From positions 249,726-313,725 of the forward strand of contig JANQLX010000002.1 of NCBI GenBank assembly GCA_028280385.1: DNA of 64,000 nt, written 5' to 3'. Source of the stretch: Allomuricauda sp. GTDB taxonomy: Bacteria; Bacteroidota; Bacteroidia; Flavobacteriales; Flavobacteriaceae. Each line of letters begins with the position of its first letter. The first letter of the stretch is position 1. Both the position numbers and the translations under genes were made by a program. A model generated the notes under the pieces. It did no database searches. It had not been told where the DNA came from and worked only from the letters and a program-made list of their open reading frames with translations. Shown here one piece after another: positions 9,071-51,931 of the stretch.

Positions 9071-12055
9071 ATGACATTAAGAAAAAAAACGATTTCCCTA
9101 TTTAGCCTTGCACTTACCGTATTGCTATTAATTTCAAGTTGTTCCAACAAAACTGACCAAAATAAAAGACCTTTGGAAACTTGGGTTTTTAGATCGGTTT
9201 TGGACAAAAAACCAAGAATGGTAACGGCTGCATTGCATGAAAACATGTGGCTGGCCTATGACACCCAAGATGGAACCTTGTACAAAGCATGGAAAGGCGG
9301 GGTAAATTTCGATGGAGCGGTCTATACCACCAAGCATGGCCCCCAGCCCACCAGTTTGGGATATGCCTATTTATCGGATAGTGAGCAATGGGCCCTTTCC
9401 AAAAATGGTGAAAGGACTGAAGCCAAAATGCAATATAAAGGGCATAAATTTACCAATGGCAATGTAAGTTTTACCTATTTGCTGCTAACTCCTGAAGGTG
9501 ATAACATTGAAGTAGTAGAGACACCAACCTATATCTCTGAAGGTGGGAAAAGTGGGCTTCAGCGTAGTTTTGAGGTCACCAATACCACCGACTACCAGGT
9601 AGTTTTGGAAACCGTGGTTTCCTCCCTGCAAAATGAAACCGATTATACAACCACCGGTTCCTTTACTGATATTACCAAGGAAGAAATCCAATTTGAGGAT
9701 GGTGAAATCCTTCAGATCCGGGGAAGTTTGGTATTAACCGAACCCACAACAACCTTCAGTGCCTACTTTCACCCAGGTTTTGATAAACTGGAGCAGAACA
9801 GCAATGAGCTGGCCTTGGAGGAAAACACCAAAAAAATGTCATTGGGCGCAAGACTGATCGAGGGAAGTGATTGTAAAGCCTGTCACAATGAAGAGGTGAA
9901 AACGGTAGGACCTTCTTATATGTCCATTGCCGAAAAATATCCCATGAACGAGGCTACCATCAAATCGCTTTCAGAGAAGATAAAACTTGGTGGAAATGGA
10001 GTTTGGGGAGAAGCAATGATGACCGCCCACCCTGACCTCCCAGATGCCGATGTGGAGGAAATGGTGAAATACATCTTGGCGCTGGACACCGATTCCGATG
10101 ATGAAGAAAATGAACAACCCAAGGAATTTACATTGGACACAGAATCCATCCCACTGGATTTTAAAGAGAGTATCAAACCACAATCCGGAAACGGCTTGGT
10201 GGCACACTTGTTTTTGGTTGGGGATGAGGACAATGATAGTAAAGCAGCCAATAAAACCATAGCCAGCAATGTACACGTCCTCAGGGCTGACGATTTTGGT
10301 GGTATCAATTCCAATTTTAAACTGGTTATCAAAGGGCAAATTGCCATTCCAGAGACTGGCAGCTACGACTTTAGATTGATGAGCGATGATGGATCCTACT
10401 TGTTTTTGGATGAAGAACTTGTAATTGACAATGGTGGTTTCCATGCCGTAAAGGCCGTAGACGGGGAAATGTACTTGAAGAAGGGAGTCCATGAACTCAG
10501 AATTGAGTTTGAACAAGGAGGTGGAGGTGCCGGATTGTCGTTCCAGTGGTTCAACAAGGCCAATGAGAAATTCGAGCTATTGCCCAACGAAATGTTGACC
10601 TATACCGAAGCACATTTTTCTGAGACCACTCCATACGTACCGCCAAAGTCAGCGGATGAAATGGATAAGGAACTTAGAAAGCCCGGCGATAAAAAACCAT
10701 TGGAAGATGTGCATCCTTCCTTTACCTTATACCAAGCCAGACCAGATGATTTTAAACCCCGTGTAGGTGGAATGGACTTTAAATCGGACAGCACCTTGAT
10801 CCTTAGTACTTGGGATGCGGAAGGTTCGGTCTATGCCATTAAAAACTACCTCTCAGGAGACCCAAAGGCCATTACGGTAAACAGAATAGCTTCTGGTTTG
10901 GCGGAACCCTTGGGTGTTAAGGTGGTAGATGATGAGATTTATGTGCTCCAAAAACAGGAACTCACCAAATTGATTGATCACGATGGAGATGAACTCATTG
11001 ATGAATACCAGGTGGTCAGCAACAAATGGAAGGTGTCCGACAATTTCCATGAGTTCGCCTTTGGACTGGAATATAACGAAGGCCATTTTTATGCTACTTT
11101 GGCCACGGCAATCCTGCCGGGTGGTGCCAGCGCATCCCCGCAGATTCCTGATCGTGGCAAAACAATTAAGATCAGTAAGGAAAATGGCGATTTGGAATTT
11201 GTTGCCCACGGGCTTCGAACCCCAAATGGTATTGGATTCAACAAGGAAAAAGAGCTTTTTGTGGCCGATAATCAAGGGGATTGGTTGCCATCCTCCAAAA
11301 TTGTACATATCCAAAATGGGGAATTCTATGGTTCCCGCTCCGTGGATCCAGAAGGTACCGCAGACCTGGTTGAAAAACTACCACTGGTATGGCTGCCCCA
11401 AGATGAAATTGGAAACTCTCCCAGCGAACCCACTTATTTGGATGTTGGTCCATATAAAGGACAATTGATCCATGGCGAGGTGACCCATGGTGGGATAAAA
11501 CGTGTGGCCTACGAAGACGTTGGCGGTCAATTGCAAGGGGCCGTGTTTAGGTTTACCCAAGGTATTGAGGCCGGGGTCAACCGAATTCGATGGGCGCCCG
11601 ATGGTTCCCTGGTTATTGGAGGTATCGGGGTTTCTGGAAACTGGTTGCACTATGGCAAGCTTAACTATGGATTGCAACGGATGGTATACAATGGGGAGAC
11701 AACTTTTGAGATGTTGAAAATCACCTCTAAATCGGATGGTTTTGCAATAGATTTTACAGCACCTTTGGCCAATGAAGTGGATACCTCCAAGGTATTGGAA
11801 GTGGAACAATGGTATTACCTGCCCACCGAGGCCTACGGAGGGCCAAAACTCGATCATAAAAAACTAAGCAGTCGGGTAATCAAAATATCGGATGATAGAA
11901 AGCGACTGTTTGTTTCGGTGGATGGCCTTAAAGAAAACCATGTGGTCTATTTCCACCTTAATCCAACATTGAAGAGCGATTCCGGTCAAGAACTTTGGAC
12001 CACTGAAGCCTGGTATACCCAAAACAAAATATCGGAGAATAGCCTTCTTGAATAA
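9071..12055 (+). CDS. large lipoprotein: cytochrome c + PA14 + glucose/sorbosone dehydrogenase-like beta-propeller
   Basis: Lipobox LLLISSC; heme motif CKACH with distal Met (MMTAHP); PA14 motif FRLMSDDGS; propeller segments GLRTPNGIG and ADNQGDW. ATG 9071 preferred over GTG 8948, which lies inside the promoter block. Confidence 0.85.
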   Translation: MTLRKKTISLFSLALTVLLLISSCSNKTDQNKRPLETWVFRSVLDKKPRMVTAALHENMWLAYDTQDGTLYKAWKGGVNFDGAVYTTKHGPQPTSLGYAYLSDSEQWALSKNGERTEAKMQYKGHKFTNGNVSFTYLLLTPEGDNIEVVETPTYISEGGKSGLQRSFEVTNTTDYQVVLETVVSSLQNETDYTTTGSFTDITKEEIQFEDGEILQIRGSLVLTEPTTTFSAYFHPGFDKLEQNSNELALEENTKKMSLGARLIEGSDCKACHNEEVKTVGPSYMSIAEKYPMNEATIKSLSEKIKLGGNGVWGEAMMTAHPDLPDADVEEMVKYILALDTDSDDEENEQPKEFTLDTESIPLDFKESIKPQSGNGLVAHLFLVGDEDNDSKAANKTIASNVHVLRADDFGGINSNFKLVIKGQIAIPETGSYDFRLMSDDGSYLFLDEELVIDNGGFHAVKAVDGEMYLKKGVHELRIEFEQGGGGAGLSFQWFNKANEKFELLPNEMLTYTEAHFSETTPYVPPKSADEMDKELRKPGDKKPLEDVHPSFTLYQARPDDFKPRVGGMDFKSDSTLILSTWDAEGSVYAIKNYLSGDPKAITVNRIASGLAEPLGVKVVDDEIYVLQKQELTKLIDHDGDELIDEYQVVSNKWKVSDNFHEFAFGLEYNEGHFYATLATAILPGGASASPQIPDRGKTIKISKENGDLEFVAHGLRTPNGIGFNKEKELFVADNQGDWLPSSKIVHIQNGEFYGSRSVDPEGTADLVEKLPLVWLPQDEIGNSPSEPTYLDVGPYKGQLIHGEVTHGGIKRVAYEDVGGQLQGAVFRFTQGIEAGVNRIRWAPDGSLVIGGIGVSGNWLHYGKLNYGLQRMVYNGETTFEMLKITSKSDGFAIDFTAPLANEVDTSKVLEVEQWYYLPTEAYGGPKLDHKKLSSRVIKISDDRKRLFVSVDGLKENHVVYFHLNPTLKSDSGQELWTTEAWYTQNKISENSLLE

Positions 12056-43433: not shown

Positions 43434-43502
43434 GATATATATTTTGATGAAATGGTTGCTTTTCAATTACATGACAAAAGTAGATGGGCGATTATCCATG
43501 AA

Positions 43503-43531
43503 CGTATACATTTTCCAGAATGGCGTATACA
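43503..43531 (-). promoter_or_regulatory. tandem direct repeat with 21-bp period, candidate AraC operator
   Basis: CGTATACA at 43503 and 43524, 70 bp upstream of the SDR start. Confidence 0.5.
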
Positions 43532-43828
43532 AATTACTGATGGGAGATTGAGTCTGTAGTTTATGATCGTTAGTCTATGGTTTTGGTTATTGGGAATTGT
43601 CCATTGATGATTATAACCCAAGGGCTTGTAGCGATGTTCAAAATTTAATATGGCCACCAAATATTTGTAGGTTTTTCCGCTTGTTTTTGAGGTAATTTCC
43701 GATTCCAATCAAAATATTTAGTAACTTAAAATTCTTAACTACAACATTTTATTTTCCCCTATTTTCAAGATTTCCGTTGCTTGAAAAGCAAATGAAATAC
43801 GGATATAACAACTTTAAATAAGGAGAAC

Positions 43829-44521
43829 ATGAAAATCACGTACACTTTTTTATCAGTTCAAACTTCTAGGCCACGACTATTGGTTCAGTTTAATTTACCG
43901 AAGATGGTACTGGCATTCTTTTTACCATTATTGTTTTTAGGTTGCGAAACATTGGAAGACCCGGAACCTTTTGGGACGGCCAGTTTACAGGAACCAGAGG
44001 TGGAAAGTGACTTTCTTCAAAATTGGCTTGAAAACAATGAACTCATGGCCTATGTCATGGAAAACGATGATGCAATTTATGTGGATGATGCCTATGTTGA
44101 TGACATAAAGGAATCCTTGGAAGCTACCGTGGACAACGGAGTTTGGTTGTACCAAAACAGTAAAGGCGATTCTCTTAAAAGGAATCAACAGCCACTGAAT
44201 ATAAAAGATTATGCAAATAGGGTAGCCATTGTTAAGTGGTCCTTTGCCCGAGGCTACCAATGTCAGGAATTACCCAAAGGGTACAAACTACCAATCCATA
44301 GGGCCGGAGACCGAAACAGGAAAATTGTGGCGGCCTACGAGCTCACCGAGAAAGGAAGCTGGTGTGTGGACAACCGACGATACCGATGCAAGTTTGGCTG
44401 GAAAAAAGTTACTGCCCGGTTTATCAAGGTCAACCGAAATGGAAAGCTCAGAAAAAAGAACGGCGAATATATTCGATATCCAGAAGCCAGCATGAACTTG
44501 ATGGTATGCACCAACGACTAA
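43829..44521 (+). CDS. hypothetical lipoprotein
   Basis: Lipobox LLFLGC; AAGGAG precedes ATG 43829 (alternative ATG 43904). Confidence 0.7.
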   Translation: MKITYTFLSVQTSRPRLLVQFNLPKMVLAFFLPLLFLGCETLEDPEPFGTASLQEPEVESDFLQNWLENNELMAYVMENDDAIYVDDAYVDDIKESLEATVDNGVWLYQNSKGDSLKRNQQPLNIKDYANRVAIVKWSFARGYQCQELPKGYKLPIHRAGDRNRKIVAAYELTEKGSWCVDNRRYRCKFGWKKVTARFIKVNRNGKLRKKNGEYIRYPEASMNLMVCTND

Positions 44522-44550
44522 GGACTTTTTGAATAATTAAATACACCAAC

Positions 44551-45123
44551 ATGTCTATTTACAAAAGCATACAACTTGTTATTGTGCTTATTCTGCTCTC
44601 TGGTATGAACCTGGGATGCACGCCCAGAAAAAAGGCACCAATCGACCTTTTCCCAAAATCGGTTAACGTAGCAAAGGATAGCTCCGCTACCACCGAGATT
44701 ACCCTGAACTGGGGATTTGCATCACGGAACAACCCCATTTATGAATTTGATATTGCAGTGGACATTGATGGTAGGCCAGTAAATACCGGGAGGGTTAAAA
44801 TTGAAGCTAAAAATGACCCAGCTTCTTGTTCTGGAAACGGAAACTGCAGCACAAAATCCTGTCCACAAATTAAAATTACCTATAACATTTTCGGGGAGGA
44901 AGAACAATGGGAATGGGATGGCACCTGTACCAGTTTTAGTGATATAGCAGGAGATCCCAACTTGAACGATGAGTGTTATTGCAGTTATGCTTCAAGAAGT
45001 AGTTGTAAATATATCATCAGTGTCCCGGAGCCTTCCGGAGAGGTTGTTACCATCACCATAGACCCTAAAAATGAAGTTCAAGAAATAGTGGAGGACAATA
45101 ACAGTATTGAAGTCCAGCTTTAG
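44551..45123 (+). CDS. Cys-rich lipoprotein with CARDB-like C-terminal motif
   Basis: Lipobox MNLGC; IDPKNEVQEIVEDNN matches the CARDB DPxNxVxExxExNN pattern. Confidence 0.7.
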   Translation: MSIYKSIQLVIVLILLSGMNLGCTPRKKAPIDLFPKSVNVAKDSSATTEITLNWGFASRNNPIYEFDIAVDIDGRPVNTGRVKIEAKNDPASCSGNGNCSTKSCPQIKITYNIFGEEEQWEWDGTCTSFSDIAGDPNLNDECYCSYASRSSCKYIISVPEPSGEVVTITIDPKNEVQEIVEDNNSIEVQL

Positions 45124-45375
45124 CCAAAGCACGATATCCATTTCGTAAAAATTTCTTCCGTCAATCCACCGATCCATAGATATAATCCAGGGTGTTTTTG
45201 GAAATAAACTTGCTTGATCCTTCCTCAGGGGGCAGGCGGGTAGATACATTTTCCAGCATATTGCACCAAATTATGACTATGTTCTTCGAAACGAAGGCAT
45301 TGCACCGCCAAAAAATACACGGACAGACCACAAACACCTGTAAATTTTGTACATTGATAACTAAAACAACCTCCC

Positions 45376-48300
45376 GTGATAAGTGATTTGATCAACAAAG
45401 GAATTCAGAGTTACAATGCCGGTCGATATGACGAAGCCATATCCTATTTTTCACAAGCCGCAGCCCAAGACCCAACCAATGCCAGCTGTTATGGGAATCT
45501 GGGATCTTGCTATCATATGAAGAAGGATTACCCGCAGGCCATAACCCATTTCCAAAAAGCCCTTTCACTGAACCCAAACCACGTACCGGCCTTAAAATCT
45601 TTGGGCAATGTTTACTTTGAAACCCATAAGGACGACAATGCCCTTGAATGTTATATAAAAGCCATAGCACTGGAACCTTCTGACCCGAACACCCATCATT
45701 ATATGGGCGTGATCTATGCCAACAAACAGATTTACACCAAGGCTGCCGAATCCTATGAAAAAGCCGCCCTGTTGGCTCCCAAACCGGAGACTTACAATGA
45801 ATTGGCCAATGCCCATTTTAAAATGTTCGAATTTGACATTGCCGCGCAGTATTTTGAGAAGGCAATGCATCTAAAACCATCCGACCCGCTGTACCAAAAC
45901 AATCTTAAAACAGCACAGGAGGCCCAAACCAACTTTTCCGTGGACCTTCCTAAACTGCGGTCACAGCAATTCAATGAAAAAGGAAATTCCTATCACCGTA
46001 ACGGAGAATACGACCAGGCAATCTTCTATTACCAAAAGGCCACTTTAGAGGCCCCCAATGATCCCGTACTGCAAAGAAACCTTGCTGGGAGTTATACCGC
46101 CAAAAAAAATGACGAAGGGGCACTACCTGCCTATTTAAGGGCCGTGGAAATTGACCCCAATGACGGAAACACCTACAATGATTTAGGTTGCTGCCTCATC
46201 CGATTAAACCGGTTCAAGGAAGCCATTGATGCCTTTTACAAGGCCCTGGCCATAGACCCCAACAACACCTATTACCGTCAAAATATTGACTACGCCAGGC
46301 AGCAAGACCAACTAAGTCCGGATCAAATAGATGCCCTTAAGGAAGCCAACAGGCTCAATCAAATAGGAACCGACCTCTTTAGCCAGGCCAAATACCAGGA
46401 AGCGTTGGGATATTACCAAAGGGCGGTTGACCTTAACCCAAAGGACGCCATTCTTGTATTCAATTTGGCCAATGCCCTTTTTAACCTTGGTAGACAGGAA
46501 GAAAGTCTCCCCCTTTTAAAAAGATCCCTGGAACTGGATCCCACCAATCTATCCACCCTAAATTTGATGGGAAATATCCAAACTCATTTCAAACAATTCG
46601 ACGAGGCCATAGCTACCTACCAAAAGGCACTCAGTTTTAAGGAAGATGCTGAGGCCTACAACAATCTGGGTAGCTGTTACTTTTCCATGCACCAATATGG
46701 GAAGGCAGCAGAGTTTTTTCAAAAGGCTTTGGATCTTAGTCCTGATAACGAAATTTATAAGACCAACGTCCAAATAGCACGATCCAATGAAAAAGTCTAC
46801 AGTGGATTGCCCCCGGAGGTAGTGCAAGAGGCCATGGCGATCAACCAACAAGCCATGAATGCCTACAACCAAAAGGACTATTCCCTTGCAGTAACACTTT
46901 TTGCCAAATATTTGGAGCAATTGCCCAATGATCCCCTTGGCAATTATAATCTGGCCACGGCCTATCATGCCCAACGGGCGTATGATGCCTCCATCGAGTA
47001 TTATGAAAAAGCACTAAAGTTAGACCCTAAATATGCGGATGCGGCCAACGCGCTGGGTAACGCATTTAGGGACAAGGGAGATAATAAAAAAGCCGTAAAA
47101 GCTTATGAAAAAGCATTGGACCTAAACCCCTCCCATGCAGCAACGCATAAAGATTTGGGATTCCTATATTTTAAGCAAGACGAGTTTAAAAAGGCCATTG
47201 CCCATTATTTAAAAGCCTCAGAACTGTTGCCAGATGCACATGACATCCATAACCAGTTGGGCTTTTGCTACTTTAAACTCTACGGGTTTACTAAGGCGGC
47301 ATCGTATTTTCAGAAAGCAGCGGATTTGGAGCCTGGCAATCCCACATATAAAGACAACTTAAATGCGGCATTGGCTGAAAAGGAAAAGCATGGCGATGAA
47401 CTGGATATGTCAGACAAACCGTCGTTGGATGAAGTCATGAAAGAAGTCAATGCCATGATTGGATTGGGCAACATAAAGCAGGACATTGACACGCTCACCA
47501 AATTCACCAAAATAGAAAAATTACGCAGGGAGAAAGGCCTCTCCAAAAACCCAATCAGTATGCACACGGTATTCTTGGGGCCTCCAGGAACTGGGAAAAC
47601 CACCGTGGCACGTTTGCTGGGCAAGATTTATCATGCCTTGGGTGTCTTATCAAGTGGCCACGTGGTGGAAGTGGACCGTTCGCAATTGGTAGCATCCTTT
47701 GTGGGACAGACCGCCCAAAAAACCAATGAGATCATTGATCAAGCCCTTGGTGGAATCCTTTTTATTGATGAGGCCTATACTTTGAACAAGGGAGACTCCG
47801 TGGATTATGGTGTAGAGGCCATTGACACCCTACTGAAAAGAATGGAAGACGACCGGGATAAATTGATGGTCATTGTGGCGGGGTACCCCCTACCCATGCA
47901 AAACTTTTTGGAAGCCAATCCAGGACTGCGGTCACGGTTCAACCGCTACTTCAATTTCATGGATTACAAGCCTGAAGAGCTTCTTGATATCTTTAGATTG
48001 TTCTGTTCCAACAATTCCATGTCCATTCATGATGATGCGGAGCAAAAACTCTTTAGATATTTCAAATACCTTCATGAAACCAAGGATGAGACCTTTGGCA
48101 ATGCCCGGATGGTACGGAATTCTTTCGAAAAAATCATTCAGGCCCAATCTCTCAGACTTTCAGATTATGGACATATCCCAGATGACGTTCTTTCCACTTT
48201 GACATTAAAAGACGTGGACAACGCGTTGGCGCATGATTTCCAAGAAACCACGGAGGAATCCTTGGAAGAGGTCTTGGCGGAAGTAGAAAAGTTGGTGGGA

Positions 48301-49125
48301 CTCAACAATGTAAAACAAGAAATCAATGCCCTGATCAACTTTATCAAGGTTGAAAGAATGAGATCGGAACAGGGCATGTCGCCAACAAAATTATCCCTAC
48401 ACTTTGTGTTCCAAGGACCTCCTGGAACCGGTAAAACCACAGTGGCCCGTCTACTCGGACGTATCTTTAAAGCCATGGGCATTATTGGCAAAGGCCATGT
48501 GGTGGAAGTGGACCGTTCCAACCTGATAGGTCAATATGTGGGGCAAACCGCACCCAAGACCAATGAGGTAATCGACTCAGCGCTTAACGGAGTCCTTTTT
48601 ATTGATGAGGCCTATACCTTGAATCCATCTGGGGGCGGCAACGATTTTGGAAGCGAAGCCATAGCCACCCTTCTGAAGCGCATGGAGGATGACCGAGACC
48701 GTTTGATTGTTGTGGTGGCCGGATACCAGCATGATATGGACACTTTTATAAAGTCTAACGCAGGATTACAATCCCGGTTTAACCGCTATCTGGATTTTAC
48801 GGATTATGCCCCGCAGGAGTTGATGCAGATTTTTGAACTGTTCTGCTCATCGAACAATTACTCTTTGGATGAGGCAAGCAGGCATACCCTGGCCAATTTC
48901 TTTACCCAGATATACCAAAACAGGGATGGCAATTTTGGTAATGGTCGCTTGGTACGAAATGTATTTGAAAAGGTAGTGGAAACCCAAGCCAATCGTATTT
49001 CGGGCGAGTCCAATATCAGTAATGAGGCACTGGTGGGCATTATCAATGATGATGTACTCCATGCTTTGTCGCAGTTTTCGGTGCCAAAGAAAGAAGACAG
49101 AAAAGGCATTGGGTTTTTGGATTGA
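45376..49125 (+). CDS. TPR-repeat protein with tandem CbbX/SpoVK-family AAA+ ATPase domains
   Basis: About 17 TPRs; two modules each with GPPGTGKT, FIDEAY and GL(R/Q)SRF; GTG start; no signal peptide. Confidence 0.92.
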   Translation: MISDLINKGIQSYNAGRYDEAISYFSQAAAQDPTNASCYGNLGSCYHMKKDYPQAITHFQKALSLNPNHVPALKSLGNVYFETHKDDNALECYIKAIALEPSDPNTHHYMGVIYANKQIYTKAAESYEKAALLAPKPETYNELANAHFKMFEFDIAAQYFEKAMHLKPSDPLYQNNLKTAQEAQTNFSVDLPKLRSQQFNEKGNSYHRNGEYDQAIFYYQKATLEAPNDPVLQRNLAGSYTAKKNDEGALPAYLRAVEIDPNDGNTYNDLGCCLIRLNRFKEAIDAFYKALAIDPNNTYYRQNIDYARQQDQLSPDQIDALKEANRLNQIGTDLFSQAKYQEALGYYQRAVDLNPKDAILVFNLANALFNLGRQEESLPLLKRSLELDPTNLSTLNLMGNIQTHFKQFDEAIATYQKALSFKEDAEAYNNLGSCYFSMHQYGKAAEFFQKALDLSPDNEIYKTNVQIARSNEKVYSGLPPEVVQEAMAINQQAMNAYNQKDYSLAVTLFAKYLEQLPNDPLGNYNLATAYHAQRAYDASIEYYEKALKLDPKYADAANALGNAFRDKGDNKKAVKAYEKALDLNPSHAATHKDLGFLYFKQDEFKKAIAHYLKASELLPDAHDIHNQLGFCYFKLYGFTKAASYFQKAADLEPGNPTYKDNLNAALAEKEKHGDELDMSDKPSLDEVMKEVNAMIGLGNIKQDIDTLTKFTKIEKLRREKGLSKNPISMHTVFLGPPGTGKTTVARLLGKIYHALGVLSSGHVVEVDRSQLVASFVGQTAQKTNEIIDQALGGILFIDEAYTLNKGDSVDYGVEAIDTLLKRMEDDRDKLMVIVAGYPLPMQNFLEANPGLRSRFNRYFNFMDYKPEELLDIFRLFCSNNSMSIHDDAEQKLFRYFKYLHETKDETFGNARMVRNSFEKIIQAQSLRLSDYGHIPDDVLSTLTLKDVDNALAHDFQETTEESLEEVLAEVEKLVGLNNVKQEINALINFIKVERMRSEQGMSPTKLSLHFVFQGPPGTGKTTVARLLGRIFKAMGIIGKGHVVEVDRSNLIGQYVGQTAPKTNEVIDSALNGVLFIDEAYTLNPSGGGNDFGSEAIATLLKRMEDDRDRLIVVVAGYQHDMDTFIKSNAGLQSRFNRYLDFTDYAPQELMQIFELFCSSNNYSLDEASRHTLANFFTQIYQNRDGNFGNGRLVRNVFEKVVETQANRISGESNISNEALVGIINDDVLHALSQFSVPKKEDRKGIGFLD

Positions 49126-49277
49126 TGACAATCCGCCTACTCTTTAATGGAATGCTTAAAAACCGTCTAAAATACCCGTAAGATAATTATCCATAAACTG
49201 AAAAAGACCATTGGTCAATTGCGGCACTCAAGAACGCATGTAGCTGGTTAGTTTGATTTCATCAAAACGATGGCTAT

Positions 49278-49790
49278 ATGAGACTATTTAAATTCACATT
49301 ACTGATTACCCCTTACCTATTGCTGGGGTGCAAGGATTCCGATTTATCCAACGAATTGTTGGAAACACAAAAAAAGTTGGTGCAAACCGAACAGGTTCTT
49401 TTGAAAACTTTGGATAAAAACAACGCCAATAACAACCTGATACGATTTTATGAGGAAACGGCCCACAATCTTATCCTTTCCAAAAATGACACCTACACCA
49501 TTAGGATAGATGAAACCCAAAAAGGTGACCTACGCTATTCAAGTTGGGCACATCCCAAAACCACAAATCAAAATCCGGATGTTGTCCTTTATGAGGGCAC
49601 AAAAGAAAAGTCAGGGAACTGGGGTGTTTTTAAATACGAGTTTAACCAGGATACCCATACCTATATTGTGGAAACGGTTCCCGTGGGACGGACGTCCAAA
49701 GAGAATCACATCTTCCTGGAAATTAGAAATCGGAACTCCCAGCAATTCTATTCCAAAATGGACGATTTACGCAAGCCTCGGCAGTTCTAG
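49278..49790 (+). CDS. hypothetical lipoprotein
   Basis: Lipobox LLLGC; short coiled coil then a beta domain. Confidence 0.7.
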   Translation: MRLFKFTLLITPYLLLGCKDSDLSNELLETQKKLVQTEQVLLKTLDKNNANNNLIRFYEETAHNLILSKNDTYTIRIDETQKGDLRYSSWAHPKTTNQNPDVVLYEGTKEKSGNWGVFKYEFNQDTHTYIVETVPVGRTSKENHIFLEIRNRNSQQFYSKMDDLRKPRQF

Positions 49791-49800
49791 CCTTACCACT

Positions 49801-50466: not shown

Positions 50467-51660
50467 TTACACCCCAACATATGTCACCCTATAAATGGCA
50501 TCAGCATAGTCGTCCGAAATCAACATGGAACCGTCCTCCAAGAACAGGATATCCACTGGCCTGCCGAATCGCTCCTGGTTGTCATCGTTGAGCCATCCAT
50601 CAATAAAAGGTTCATAACTGACAGCCTCATTGCCGTTAAGCGTTACCATAGTAATACGATACCCTACTTTGGACGAGCGATTCCAGGAACCGTGCTCCGC
50701 CATAAAGATTTGCCCTTTGTATTGGTCAGGAAAAGCATTACCGGTGTAGAATTTAACCCCGAGCGGTGCCACGTGCGCGCCCAAAGGTTGCACTGGGGGC
50801 ACAAAATTGGCGCAAGGGTTTCCTTCACCAAATTCAGGGTCAACAACACTTCCTCCGTGGCAATGTGGATAGCCAAAATGCTGCCCAATTTCAGAAGCCC
50901 TGTTCAATTCACAAGGAGGAACATCATCACCCATCATATCCCTACCGTTATCTGTAAACCACAGCTCCTGGGTTTCCGGATGCCATGTAAATCCAACAGT
51001 GTTTCGAACTCCCCTGGCATAAATCTCCCTATTACTGCCATCGGGATCCATTCGTGTTATGGTGTTAAAACGTTCATCCTCATCGGTTCGATCACAAATG
51101 TTACAGGGTGCGCCCACAGGAACATACAATTTACCATCCGGTCCGAAAGCGATGTACTTCCAGCCATGGTGGAATTCCGTTGGATAGTCATCATAGATGA
51201 CTTCGGGTTCTGGTGGGTTGGCCAGACTGGACTCTATATTGGAATATTTCAACAATCTGCTGACCTCGGCCACATATAGATCTCCATTTCTAAAGGCCAC
51301 TCCATTGGGAGACTCCAAGCTTTCATCCAATTCTGAGATTTTTTCCGCCCAATGATCTCCATCCAAATCTTGTAGTATGTAAACTTTTCCTTCGTTCCGG
51401 GTTCCAACAAAAAGGGTCCCATCATCTCCGAGGGCCATTGACCGCGCCCCTTCAATTCCTTCGGCAAAAACTTCAATTTTGAACCCAGCTGGCAGATTCA
51501 GGCTATCCAAAAGCAGGTCAGTTTCATGTACCCGTTCCTTGGGTTCGGTGATCACTTGCGCATCGGTCTGGCCGTCTGAATCACCTGGTTTTTGTTTTTT
51601 ACCATTACAGGCAATCAATAATAATCCAAGGGTAAATACCACTAATTTTTTTGATGTCAT
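50467..51660 (-). CDS. glucose/sorbosone dehydrogenase family lipoprotein
   Basis: ATG 51660 gives lipobox LLIAC; HHGWKYIAFGPDG, GVRNTVG, TDNGRD, AEHGSWNRS, GRPVD. Confidence 0.9.
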   Translation of the reverse strand: MTSKKLVVFTLGLLLIACNGKKQKPGDSDGQTDAQVITEPKERVHETDLLLDSLNLPAGFKIEVFAEGIEGARSMALGDDGTLFVGTRNEGKVYILQDLDGDHWAEKISELDESLESPNGVAFRNGDLYVAEVSRLLKYSNIESSLANPPEPEVIYDDYPTEFHHGWKYIAFGPDGKLYVPVGAPCNICDRTDEDERFNTITRMDPDGSNREIYARGVRNTVGFTWHPETQELWFTDNGRDMMGDDVPPCELNRASEIGQHFGYPHCHGGSVVDPEFGEGNPCANFVPPVQPLGAHVAPLGVKFYTGNAFPDQYKGQIFMAEHGSWNRSSKVGYRITMVTLNGNEAVSYEPFIDGWLNDDNQERFGRPVDILFLEDGSMLISDDYADAIYRVTYVGV

Positions 51661-51931
51661 TTTTTGAGGGTTGATATAGTTTATAGATTGACTAAACGTA
51701 TAAAGGTTCTTTATTTTAATGTTTGTGTACGAACAAAAGCGACACTCCCGCCTTGCCAAAATGGGCGAAACCGCTGTCTGCTTAAACCAACTACCGCGGT
51801 AATCTTGGGTGTAAGCTGAAACCATTCGAAAATACGCAAAAAACATGGTTTGGATACGGCTGCTTTTGCTTTTGAACCTATTCAGGCGGTTTGCACCTCC
51901 CATCCTTACAAAAGGATGTGATTTTGGTCAA

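Follow-up and report, generated by a model that had tools for sequence, protein, structure and literature searches.

What does a giant AAA+ protein related to the Rubisco activase CbbX, the sporulation protein SpoVK and the type VII secretion factor EccA do in a flavobacterium where the partner systems of these relatives are not found? The question is raised by a single gene (positions 45376-49125) in a 64,000-nucleotide stretch of DNA from Allomuricauda sp. (GenBank assembly GCA_028280385.1, contig JANQLX010000002.1, positions 249,726 to 313,725 of the forward strand), to which we refer as the window. An earlier note made from the DNA letters had described its product as a stand-alone double-ring remodeller with a long client-selecting arm of tetratricopeptide repeats (TPRs) and had suggested protein quality control or anti-phage defence as possible roles. 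We find that this protein is a rare new architecture within a Bacteroidota subfamily that is uncharacterised but rather widespread and belongs to a known AAA+ clade. Judging from sequence motifs and structural models, it probably works as a hexameric, two-tier threading motor similar to Cdc48 that acts on a narrow set of clients selected by its TPRs and uses a conserved C-terminal tail as a docking element. That no known parent system accompanies the gene is borne out well beyond its neighbourhood: there are no Rubisco or ESX genes in the window, and the 99.95%-complete genome, in which the gene is present as a single copy, has neither a RuBisCO large subunit (PF00016) nor any WXG100 gene.

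The two ATPase modules place the protein among its relatives. Pfam detects two AAA domains (PF00004), each followed by an AAA_lid_6 domain (PF17866; two matches, E 1e-31), with 53% identity between the two modules (AAA1 and AAA2). Both carry the Walker A sequence GPPGTGKT and a Walker B motif of the form hhhhDE, as well as a pore loop of the aromatic-hydrophobic-Gly type (F775-V-G in AAA1, Y1054-V-G in AAA2). The arginine-finger motif reads NPGLRSRF in AAA1 and NAGLQSRF in AAA2, with an Arg before the Ser in AAA1 and in CbbX. A defective finger in AAA2 due to Q1132 was ruled out, since across 67 aligned tandem relatives the position before the Ser (R852 in AAA1, Q1132 in AAA2) is variable, while the Arg of "SRF" (R854 and R1134) is invariant. 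We therefore read both arginine fingers as intact, in agreement with the earlier description of two complete AAA+ modules.

Proteins that belong to the SpoVK-EccA-like clade are recognised by a GY in sensor-1, an Asn four residues before the arginine finger and a retained sensor-2 Arg (PMC11513918). Here, sensor-1 reads AGY in both modules (residues 835-837 and 1115-1117) with Gly and Tyr invariant in the 67 relatives. The Asn residues N848 and N1128 are invariant as well, followed at +4 by the variable R852/Q1132 and at +6 by the invariant Arg. The sensor-2 motifs GNAR (R911) and GNGR (R1191) are likewise present together with AAA_lid_6. By sequence, the closest solved structures are CbbX (E 3e-55) and EccA1 (E 5e-53). 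The NCBIfam scores of the whole protein (SpoVK 558, EccA 539 and CbbX 459 bits) lie above or near the respective cut-offs, but they are sums over two modules. Taken module by module, AAA1 and AAA2 score 279 and 288 bits for SpoVK (TIGR02881, cut-off 423), 264 and 282 bits for EccA (TIGR03922, cut-off 467) and 222 and 244 bits for CbbX (TIGR02880, cut-off 459), i.e., far below in every case, so that orthology to any of the three was rejected. Going by these signatures and scores, the protein belongs to the SpoVK/CbbX/EccA clade of classical AAA+ proteins, as previously proposed, and is an orthologue of none of its three namesakes.

With two modules per chain that each have Walker A and B motifs, an arginine finger and a pore-loop aromatic residue, the protein has the module layout of type II (two-ring) AAA+ unfoldases. 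An AlphaFold2 model of residues 679-1249, calculated as a single chain with the 67-sequence alignment, has a mean predicted local distance difference test (pLDDT) score of 93.6 and a predicted template modelling (pTM) score of 0.73. In a fold search, single modules of this model matched CbbX best (template modelling (TM) scores of 0.73-0.78). The tandem aligned with the D1-D2 protomers of Cdc48/p97, Drg1/AFG2, NVL and Rix7 over ca. 570-600 columns at query-normalised TM scores of 0.58-0.63. This predicted fold fits a two-ring machine and makes the double-ring remodeller with a TPR client arm a reasonable reading of the gene product.

Extrapolating from the monomer model, six subunits would assemble into a pair of stacked rings, like those of Cdc48/p97, Drg1, NVL and Rix7. 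The TPR arm would then be a swappable, substrate-recruiting N-domain that captures clients as TPRs do in EccA, and ATP hydrolysis would pull these clients into the central pore. Like CbbX, SpoVK and EccA, such a motor would most likely serve a narrow client set and not be a general quality-control machine. Below the second ring, the six tails would act as a docking element for which the hydrophobic pocket of ClpP is the best candidate receptor, which would make the machine a protease. Alternatively, the partner of the tail could be the membrane or something else.

The arm itself is built as the earlier note had described it. In a positional scan, the TPRs number exactly 17 and fall into blocks of five, three, four and five repeats, each block followed by a Y-x-x-N-[LIV] capping helix, and Pfam reports many TPR matches across residues 1-665 (TPR_1 E 2e-109, TPR_2 E 1e-102). 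The four blocks share 25-37% identity with one another. An AlphaFold2 model of residues 1-690 is all-helical (38 helices, mean pLDDT 86), and its confidence drops solely at the three linkers between the blocks and at the linker between TPRs and AAA1. Because the pTM of this model is low (0.41), it suggests four loosely linked blocks arranged like beads on a string and not one rigid solenoid. No Hsp70/90-type carboxylate clamp was recognised in the three-repeat block, where the clamp Lys/Arg positions are not kept in a comparison by eye with Hop TPR1. The absence of a signal peptide or transmembrane segment was confirmed by a maximal Kyte-Doolittle mean of 1.06 over 19 residues for the whole protein.

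Two features go beyond what had been noticed before, namely the conserved basic-IGF tail at the C-terminus and the membership of the protein in a wider Bacteroidota family with a tandem-AAA core and this tail, here called the (AAA)2-tail family. An exhaustive HMMER search returned 14,052 cluster representatives at E <= 1e-30. Many of these relatives carry three to six tandem modules, and one set is collinear with our protein from the TPRs through both modules. Using an alignment of proteins that end in the tail, we retrieved 80 genome loci. Across these loci, the same tail also ends proteins of ca. 870 amino acids from Saprospiraceae, Chitinophagales, Cytophagales, Chlorobiota and one metagenome-assembled genome of Lachnospiraceae. 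The N-terminal regions that precede the (AAA)2-tail core comprise the 17 TPRs of the protein studied here, DUF7477 with TPRs, Sel1 repeats or ca. 350 amino acids without any Pfam match. In the DUF7477-type siblings P0175, P0192 and L019 (7254-10223), W/G-rich repeats of ca. 46 amino acids that match DUF7477 stand before a few TPRs and the (AAA)2 core; the tail is kept in P0175 and L019 and lost in P0192. Variation of this sort matches what is known of the clade, whose N-termini vary and recruit substrates and whose known members act on narrow client sets (PMC11513918). From its domain composition, we consider the TPR-AAA protein to be one N-terminal variant of the wider family, and an uncommon one: the public collection holds a handful of sequences of the 17-TPR type, which fall into metagenomic clusters of one or two members.

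The tail is flexible in the model, without secondary structure and with pLDDT falling to 59 and then 50. The protein ends in ...KKEDRKGIGFLD, in which RKGIGFLD fits the pattern [KR][KR]x-[ILMV]-G-[FY]. This motif is found within the last 16 residues of 47 out of 191 family proteins as compared with 21 of 6235 internal windows, a ca. 80-fold enrichment. In the 47 motif-bearing C-termini, it lies 0-8 residues from the end, IGF is its commonest form (29/47), and Arg or Lys mostly occupies positions -3 and -2. When the tail columns were left out of tree building, 41 of the 47 carriers fell into one clade of 67 leaves (support 81) that includes the protein, with a few occurrences of the motif outside this clade and apparent losses within it. 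On these comparisons of sequences, we regard the basic-IGF tail as a real conserved feature.

One possible interpretation of the tail is a link to proteolysis. Clp ATPases dock onto ClpP via a flexible element tipped by (L/I/V)-G-(F/L) (PMC8745299), and the tail fits this consensus, though it is a C-terminal tail and not an internal loop. The host genome encodes no HslV/20S peptidase. It has two ClpP genes, one in a clpP-clpX pair and one for an orphan paralogue, and the docking loop of its ClpX (L099 1498-2733) reads A-V-G-Y-S-A, i.e., VGY instead of the textbook IGF. C-terminal docking tails are found in other classical AAA unfoldases, with HbYX and HslU as examples, and the geometry of the tail recalls these. 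It is possible, though less likely than not, that the tail docks ClpP and that the motor hands its clients over for degradation. We would be similarly doubtful about the broader idea that the (AAA)2-tail family is a previously unrecognised class of ClpP-activating unfoldases inside the SpoVK/CbbX/EccA clade, which would dock by their C-terminal IGF tail in the manner of HbYX or HslU and for which the 17-TPR arm would be a built-in adaptor delivering specific clients.

Several observations speak against ClpP as its partner. About one third of the 67-leaf clade has lost the tail, the motif consists of only three residues with basic flanks, and no clpP homologue lies within ca. 8 kb of the gene in 83 loci (the 80 related ones and three further). 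No peptidase association is reported for the SpoVK-EccA-like clade (PMC11513918). For the motor as a whole, the rarity of the gene (see below) implies a role that can be dispensed with and that may be very narrow. The orphan ClpP paralogue (G000:C6:90504-91049; locus L102 1498-2046, minus strand) is a protein of 182 amino acids that has kept the Ser/His/Asp triad while its N-terminal axial-loop region is replaced. With 88-96% identity, it turned up in each of the ten genomes of the genus that were tested, as well as in two of three other Flavobacteriaceae genera. A link to this paralogue was ruled out because it is core in the genus with or without the TPR-AAA gene. For canonical ClpP, phyletic co-occurrence is uninformative because it is ubiquitous.

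Quite possibly, the protein is a pure chaperone or assembly factor that works without any peptidase, remodels or activates one or a few clients and releases them intact, with the tail serving autoregulation, binding to the protein's own TPRs or partner recruitment. All three characterised members of the clade function without a protease, and the absence of clpP linkage, the lack of co-occurrence with the ClpP paralogue and the fact that the tail-less third of the clade retains both ATPase modules all agree with such a role. However, a pure chaperone offers no specific reason why a basic-[ILMV]G[FY] sequence should be conserved on a flexible tail among proteins that are just 33-48% identical, and the varying spacing between motif and C-terminus speaks against a free carboxylate being recognised in the manner of TPRs. 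The tail itself could alternatively be an autoregulatory peptide or a weak membrane tether. The latter underlies a further explanation in which six tails, basic as well as hydrophobic, would hold the hexamer at the anionic inner membrane for work on membrane or envelope-biogenesis proteins. We consider this improbable. The tail does have at least two basic residues flanking the I-G-F, and lipoprotein-like open reading frames (ORFs) flank the gene in the window, but these ORFs are not retained beside the gene in L004 or G227 (described below), no membrane-protein neighbour is conserved over 32 tail-bearing loci, and three hydrophobic residues would be a very weak anchor. We consider a docking motor with a narrow client set to be the most likely reading.

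The distribution of the gene, which the earlier note had wanted checked as patchy versus core, is patchy. At E <= 1e-20 it is missing in 24 other species of the same genus, and the same holds for 16 other families of the order. A tandem SpoVK-like ATPase is present in 6 of 301 Flavobacteriaceae genomes sampled, and only one of these six has the 17-TPR form (G227, from another genus; 1247 amino acids, 77% identical, ending KGIGF). In a sample of the phylum that covered 401 genomes and 180 genera, relatives turned up in 48 and 38 of these, respectively. The gene is thus accessory and rare. Its reading frame is complete, with 1249 codons open from a GTG, and the closest named orthologue (P0038, "tetratricopeptide repeat protein [Flagellimonas sp.]") has the same length, an equivalent start and 92% identity without gaps.

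In the window, the gene lies downstream of genes for an MBL-fold hydrolase, an NAD-binding protein, an AraC regulator and a short-chain dehydrogenase/reductase (SDR) and upstream of those for a lipoprotein-like protein, a K+ channel, a glucose/sorbosone dehydrogenase and a LytTR protein. Two genomes without it, G022 and the further same-genus genome G046, have the SDR gene followed by a DUF1302-DUF1329-MMPL-MarR cassette, a lipoprotein gene and the K+ channel gene, and in G046 the TPR-AAA gene is absent at the syntenic site. The gene order of L004, the host of P0038, differs from this only by the TPR-AAA gene, which is inserted behind the SDR gene. In the window, the TPR-AAA gene is present while the MMPL cassette is absent and two extra lipoprotein-like ORFs are found, and in G227 the orthologue lies in a different context. 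The segment between the SDR and K+ channel genes is variable in the genus (window 43467-45375 and 49126-49800; L004 13756-18703; L017 4376-9323). The cassette of the relatives is replaced in the window by Cys-rich lipoprotein-like ORFs (43829-44521 and 44551-45123) without Pfam or PADLOC match. Further downstream (50467-51903, minus strand), the glucose/sorbosone-dehydrogenase ORF measures 478 amino acids from its first start compared to 383-392 in relatives; its long N-terminus is probably an artefact of ORF calling, with the true start downstream.

Because only the gene and ca. 45 bp upstream are common to the three orthologous loci (window, L004 and G227), we conclude that they form a self-contained one-gene unit at a variable spot. 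The wider contexts differ and the similarity ends further upstream. This short conserved element (core sequence in the table) is probably the gene's own Bacteroidetes-type promoter with a short leader, as far as can be read from its sequence. A scan for sigma-70 promoters and terminators was uninformative (13 promoter-like sites versus 13.4 expected). In L004, a simple tandem repeat rich in GGAAA/GAAAAT (ca. 9700-9800) lies directly upstream of the promoter-proximal element, and the window has none. Neighbour clustering over the 32 tail-bearing loci revealed no conserved partner genes, and the description of a stand-alone gene held in every context examined (L004, G022, G046, G227 and these 32 loci). 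Insertion by a mobile element was considered and rejected: there are no notable flanking repeats and no compositional anomaly, and the surrounding ORFs examined are ordinary metabolic, regulatory or lipoprotein-like genes, though integrase and tRNA genes were not specifically searched.

Features of the TPR-AAA gene and its product in the window (motif positions are residue numbers of the protein)
Feature	Position in window	Strand	Basis or remark
Conserved upstream element, core CAAATTTTGTACATTGA	45330..45375	+	conserved in three orthologous loci
Complete gene for 1249-residue TPR-(AAA+)2 protein with C-terminal tail	45376..49125	+	GTG start
TPR block 1: five TPRs (residues 2-170) and capping helix YQNNL	45379..45936	+	positional scan, AlphaFold2 model
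TPR block 2: three TPRs (residues 196-297) and capping helix YRQNI	45946..46308	+	positional scan, AlphaFold2 model
TPR block 3: four TPRs (residues 324-458) and capping helix YKTNV	46318..46800	+	positional scan, AlphaFold2 model
TPR block 4: five TPRs (residues 486-655) and capping helix YKDNL	46813..47391	+	positional scan, AlphaFold2 model
AAA+ module 1 (residues 679-957) with AAA_lid_6	47410..48246	+	motifs, AlphaFold2 model (mean pLDDT 93.6)
AAA1 motifs: Walker A 735, pore loop FVG 775, Walker B 794, sensor-1 AGY 835, NPGLRSRF 848, sensor-2 GNAR 908			
AAA+ module 2 (residues 958-1231) with AAA_lid_6	48247..49068	+	motifs, AlphaFold2 model
AAA2 motifs: Walker A 1014, pore loop YVG 1054, Walker B 1073, sensor-1 AGY 1115, NAGLQSRF 1128, sensor-2 GNGR 1188			
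Flexible C-terminal tail (residues 1232-1249, ...SVPKKEDRKGIGFLD) with [KR][KR]x-[ILMV]-G-[FY] motif	49069..49122	+	model, motif counts

A patchy accessory gene at a variable site invites the idea of anti-phage defence or another conflict system, with the TPR arm as the sensor of a phage protein and the ATPase then unfolding or degrading a target that is either essential or of the phage. Defence NTPases commonly have TPR sensors, and a screen of the protein and ten neighbours against PADLOC-DB v2 gave weak matches to the IetA and TRIP13 models. These matches, as well as one to a TPR model, nevertheless reflect generic AAA/TPR similarity with E-values of 1e-18 at best and partial coverage. None of the ten neighbours gave any PADLOC match, the protein has no effector domain and no partner gene, and of the surrounding ORFs that were examined, none was recognised as a defence or mobile-element gene. 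The substitution pattern speaks against an arms race, too. Between the copies of the window and L004, synonymous divergence (dS) is saturated, and nonsynonymous divergence (dN) amounts to 0.054 in the TPR arm, 0.028 in AAA1 and 0.058 in AAA2 (0.03-0.065 overall) without any indels relative to this 92%-identical orthologue. The arm is hence not evolving faster than the second ATPase module, and the gene is under strong purifying selection without arms-race signature in the TPRs. Moreover, the G227 orthologue has diverged about as much as two ordinary neighbouring genes (77% identity versus 76% and 83%). We therefore regard a defence function, a suggestion of the earlier note that found no support, as very improbable. 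Because the G227 orthologue diverges like its ordinary neighbours, old vertical descent with many losses is as plausible an origin of the distribution as transfer.

In this protein, a motor of the SpoVK/CbbX/EccA type occurs in duplicate, as a two-ring format, and is joined to a modular TPR arm of unusual length, and this in a phylum without the known client systems of the clade. Should the IGF tail indeed dock ClpP, the family would be a fourth, independently evolved family of bacterial Clp-type unfoldases with exchangeable built-in adaptors, and it would overturn the view that the SpoVK/CbbX/EccA clade never partners with peptidases. These ideas are directly testable with recombinant protein because the gene is self-contained and the protein is predicted to be soluble.

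Among the known systems, EccA1 of mycobacterial type VII secretion (TIGR03922; PDB 9LUR for the AAA domain) resembles the protein in its general layout of N-terminal TPRs followed by a CbbX-type AAA+ module with AAA_lid_6. EccA is thought to bind a narrow client set through its TPRs, but its AAA module is a single one and its TPR domain is short and combined with a beta-helix (PMC11513918), whereas in the protein described here the TPRs number 17, arranged in four blocks, and the modules two. CbbX, the red-type Rubisco activase (TIGR02880; PDB 3SYL and 3ZUH), is the best match of each module in structure and sequence (38% identity), and its pore-loop Tyr aligns with Y1054. However, it is a single-module hexamer without TPRs that acts on Rubisco, for which there is no gene in this genome. 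For each module, the family with the highest score is SpoVK of Bacillus sporulation (TIGR02881), which also has the clade signatures in common with the protein. SpoVK differs by its short beta-rich N-domain, its single module and its restriction to sporulating Bacillota (PMC11513918), while the host here is a flavobacterium.

The type II classical AAA+ unfoldases Cdc48/p97, Drg1/AFG2, NVL and Rix7 have in common with the protein that they combine two AAA modules in one chain and belong to the classical AAA assemblage. They are only 16-19% identical to it and have a different lid (AAA_lid_6 here) and a different N-domain. Archaeal Cdc48 and PAN dock onto their peptidase via C-terminal tails, and no 20S/HslV is encoded in the genome studied here. 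ClpX, ClpA and ClpC resemble the protein in that a flexible element beside the last ATPase ring bears a tripeptide of the (L/I/V)-G-(F/L) type, and the genome studied here encodes ClpP. Unlike the protein, they are members of the HCLR clade with the motif on an internal loop, and the clpP linkage was not found here. To our knowledge, a C-terminal IGF tail is not a described feature of EccA. Such a tail is shared with the Bacteroidota family of ca. 870-residue (AAA)2-IGF-tail proteins, which have the same two-module core (41-46% identity), are likewise encoded by stand-alone genes and fall into the same clade of the tree. In place of the TPR arm, these relatives have an N-terminal region of ca. 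350 amino acids without TPRs or any Pfam match, and they are far commoner among the sampled genomes.

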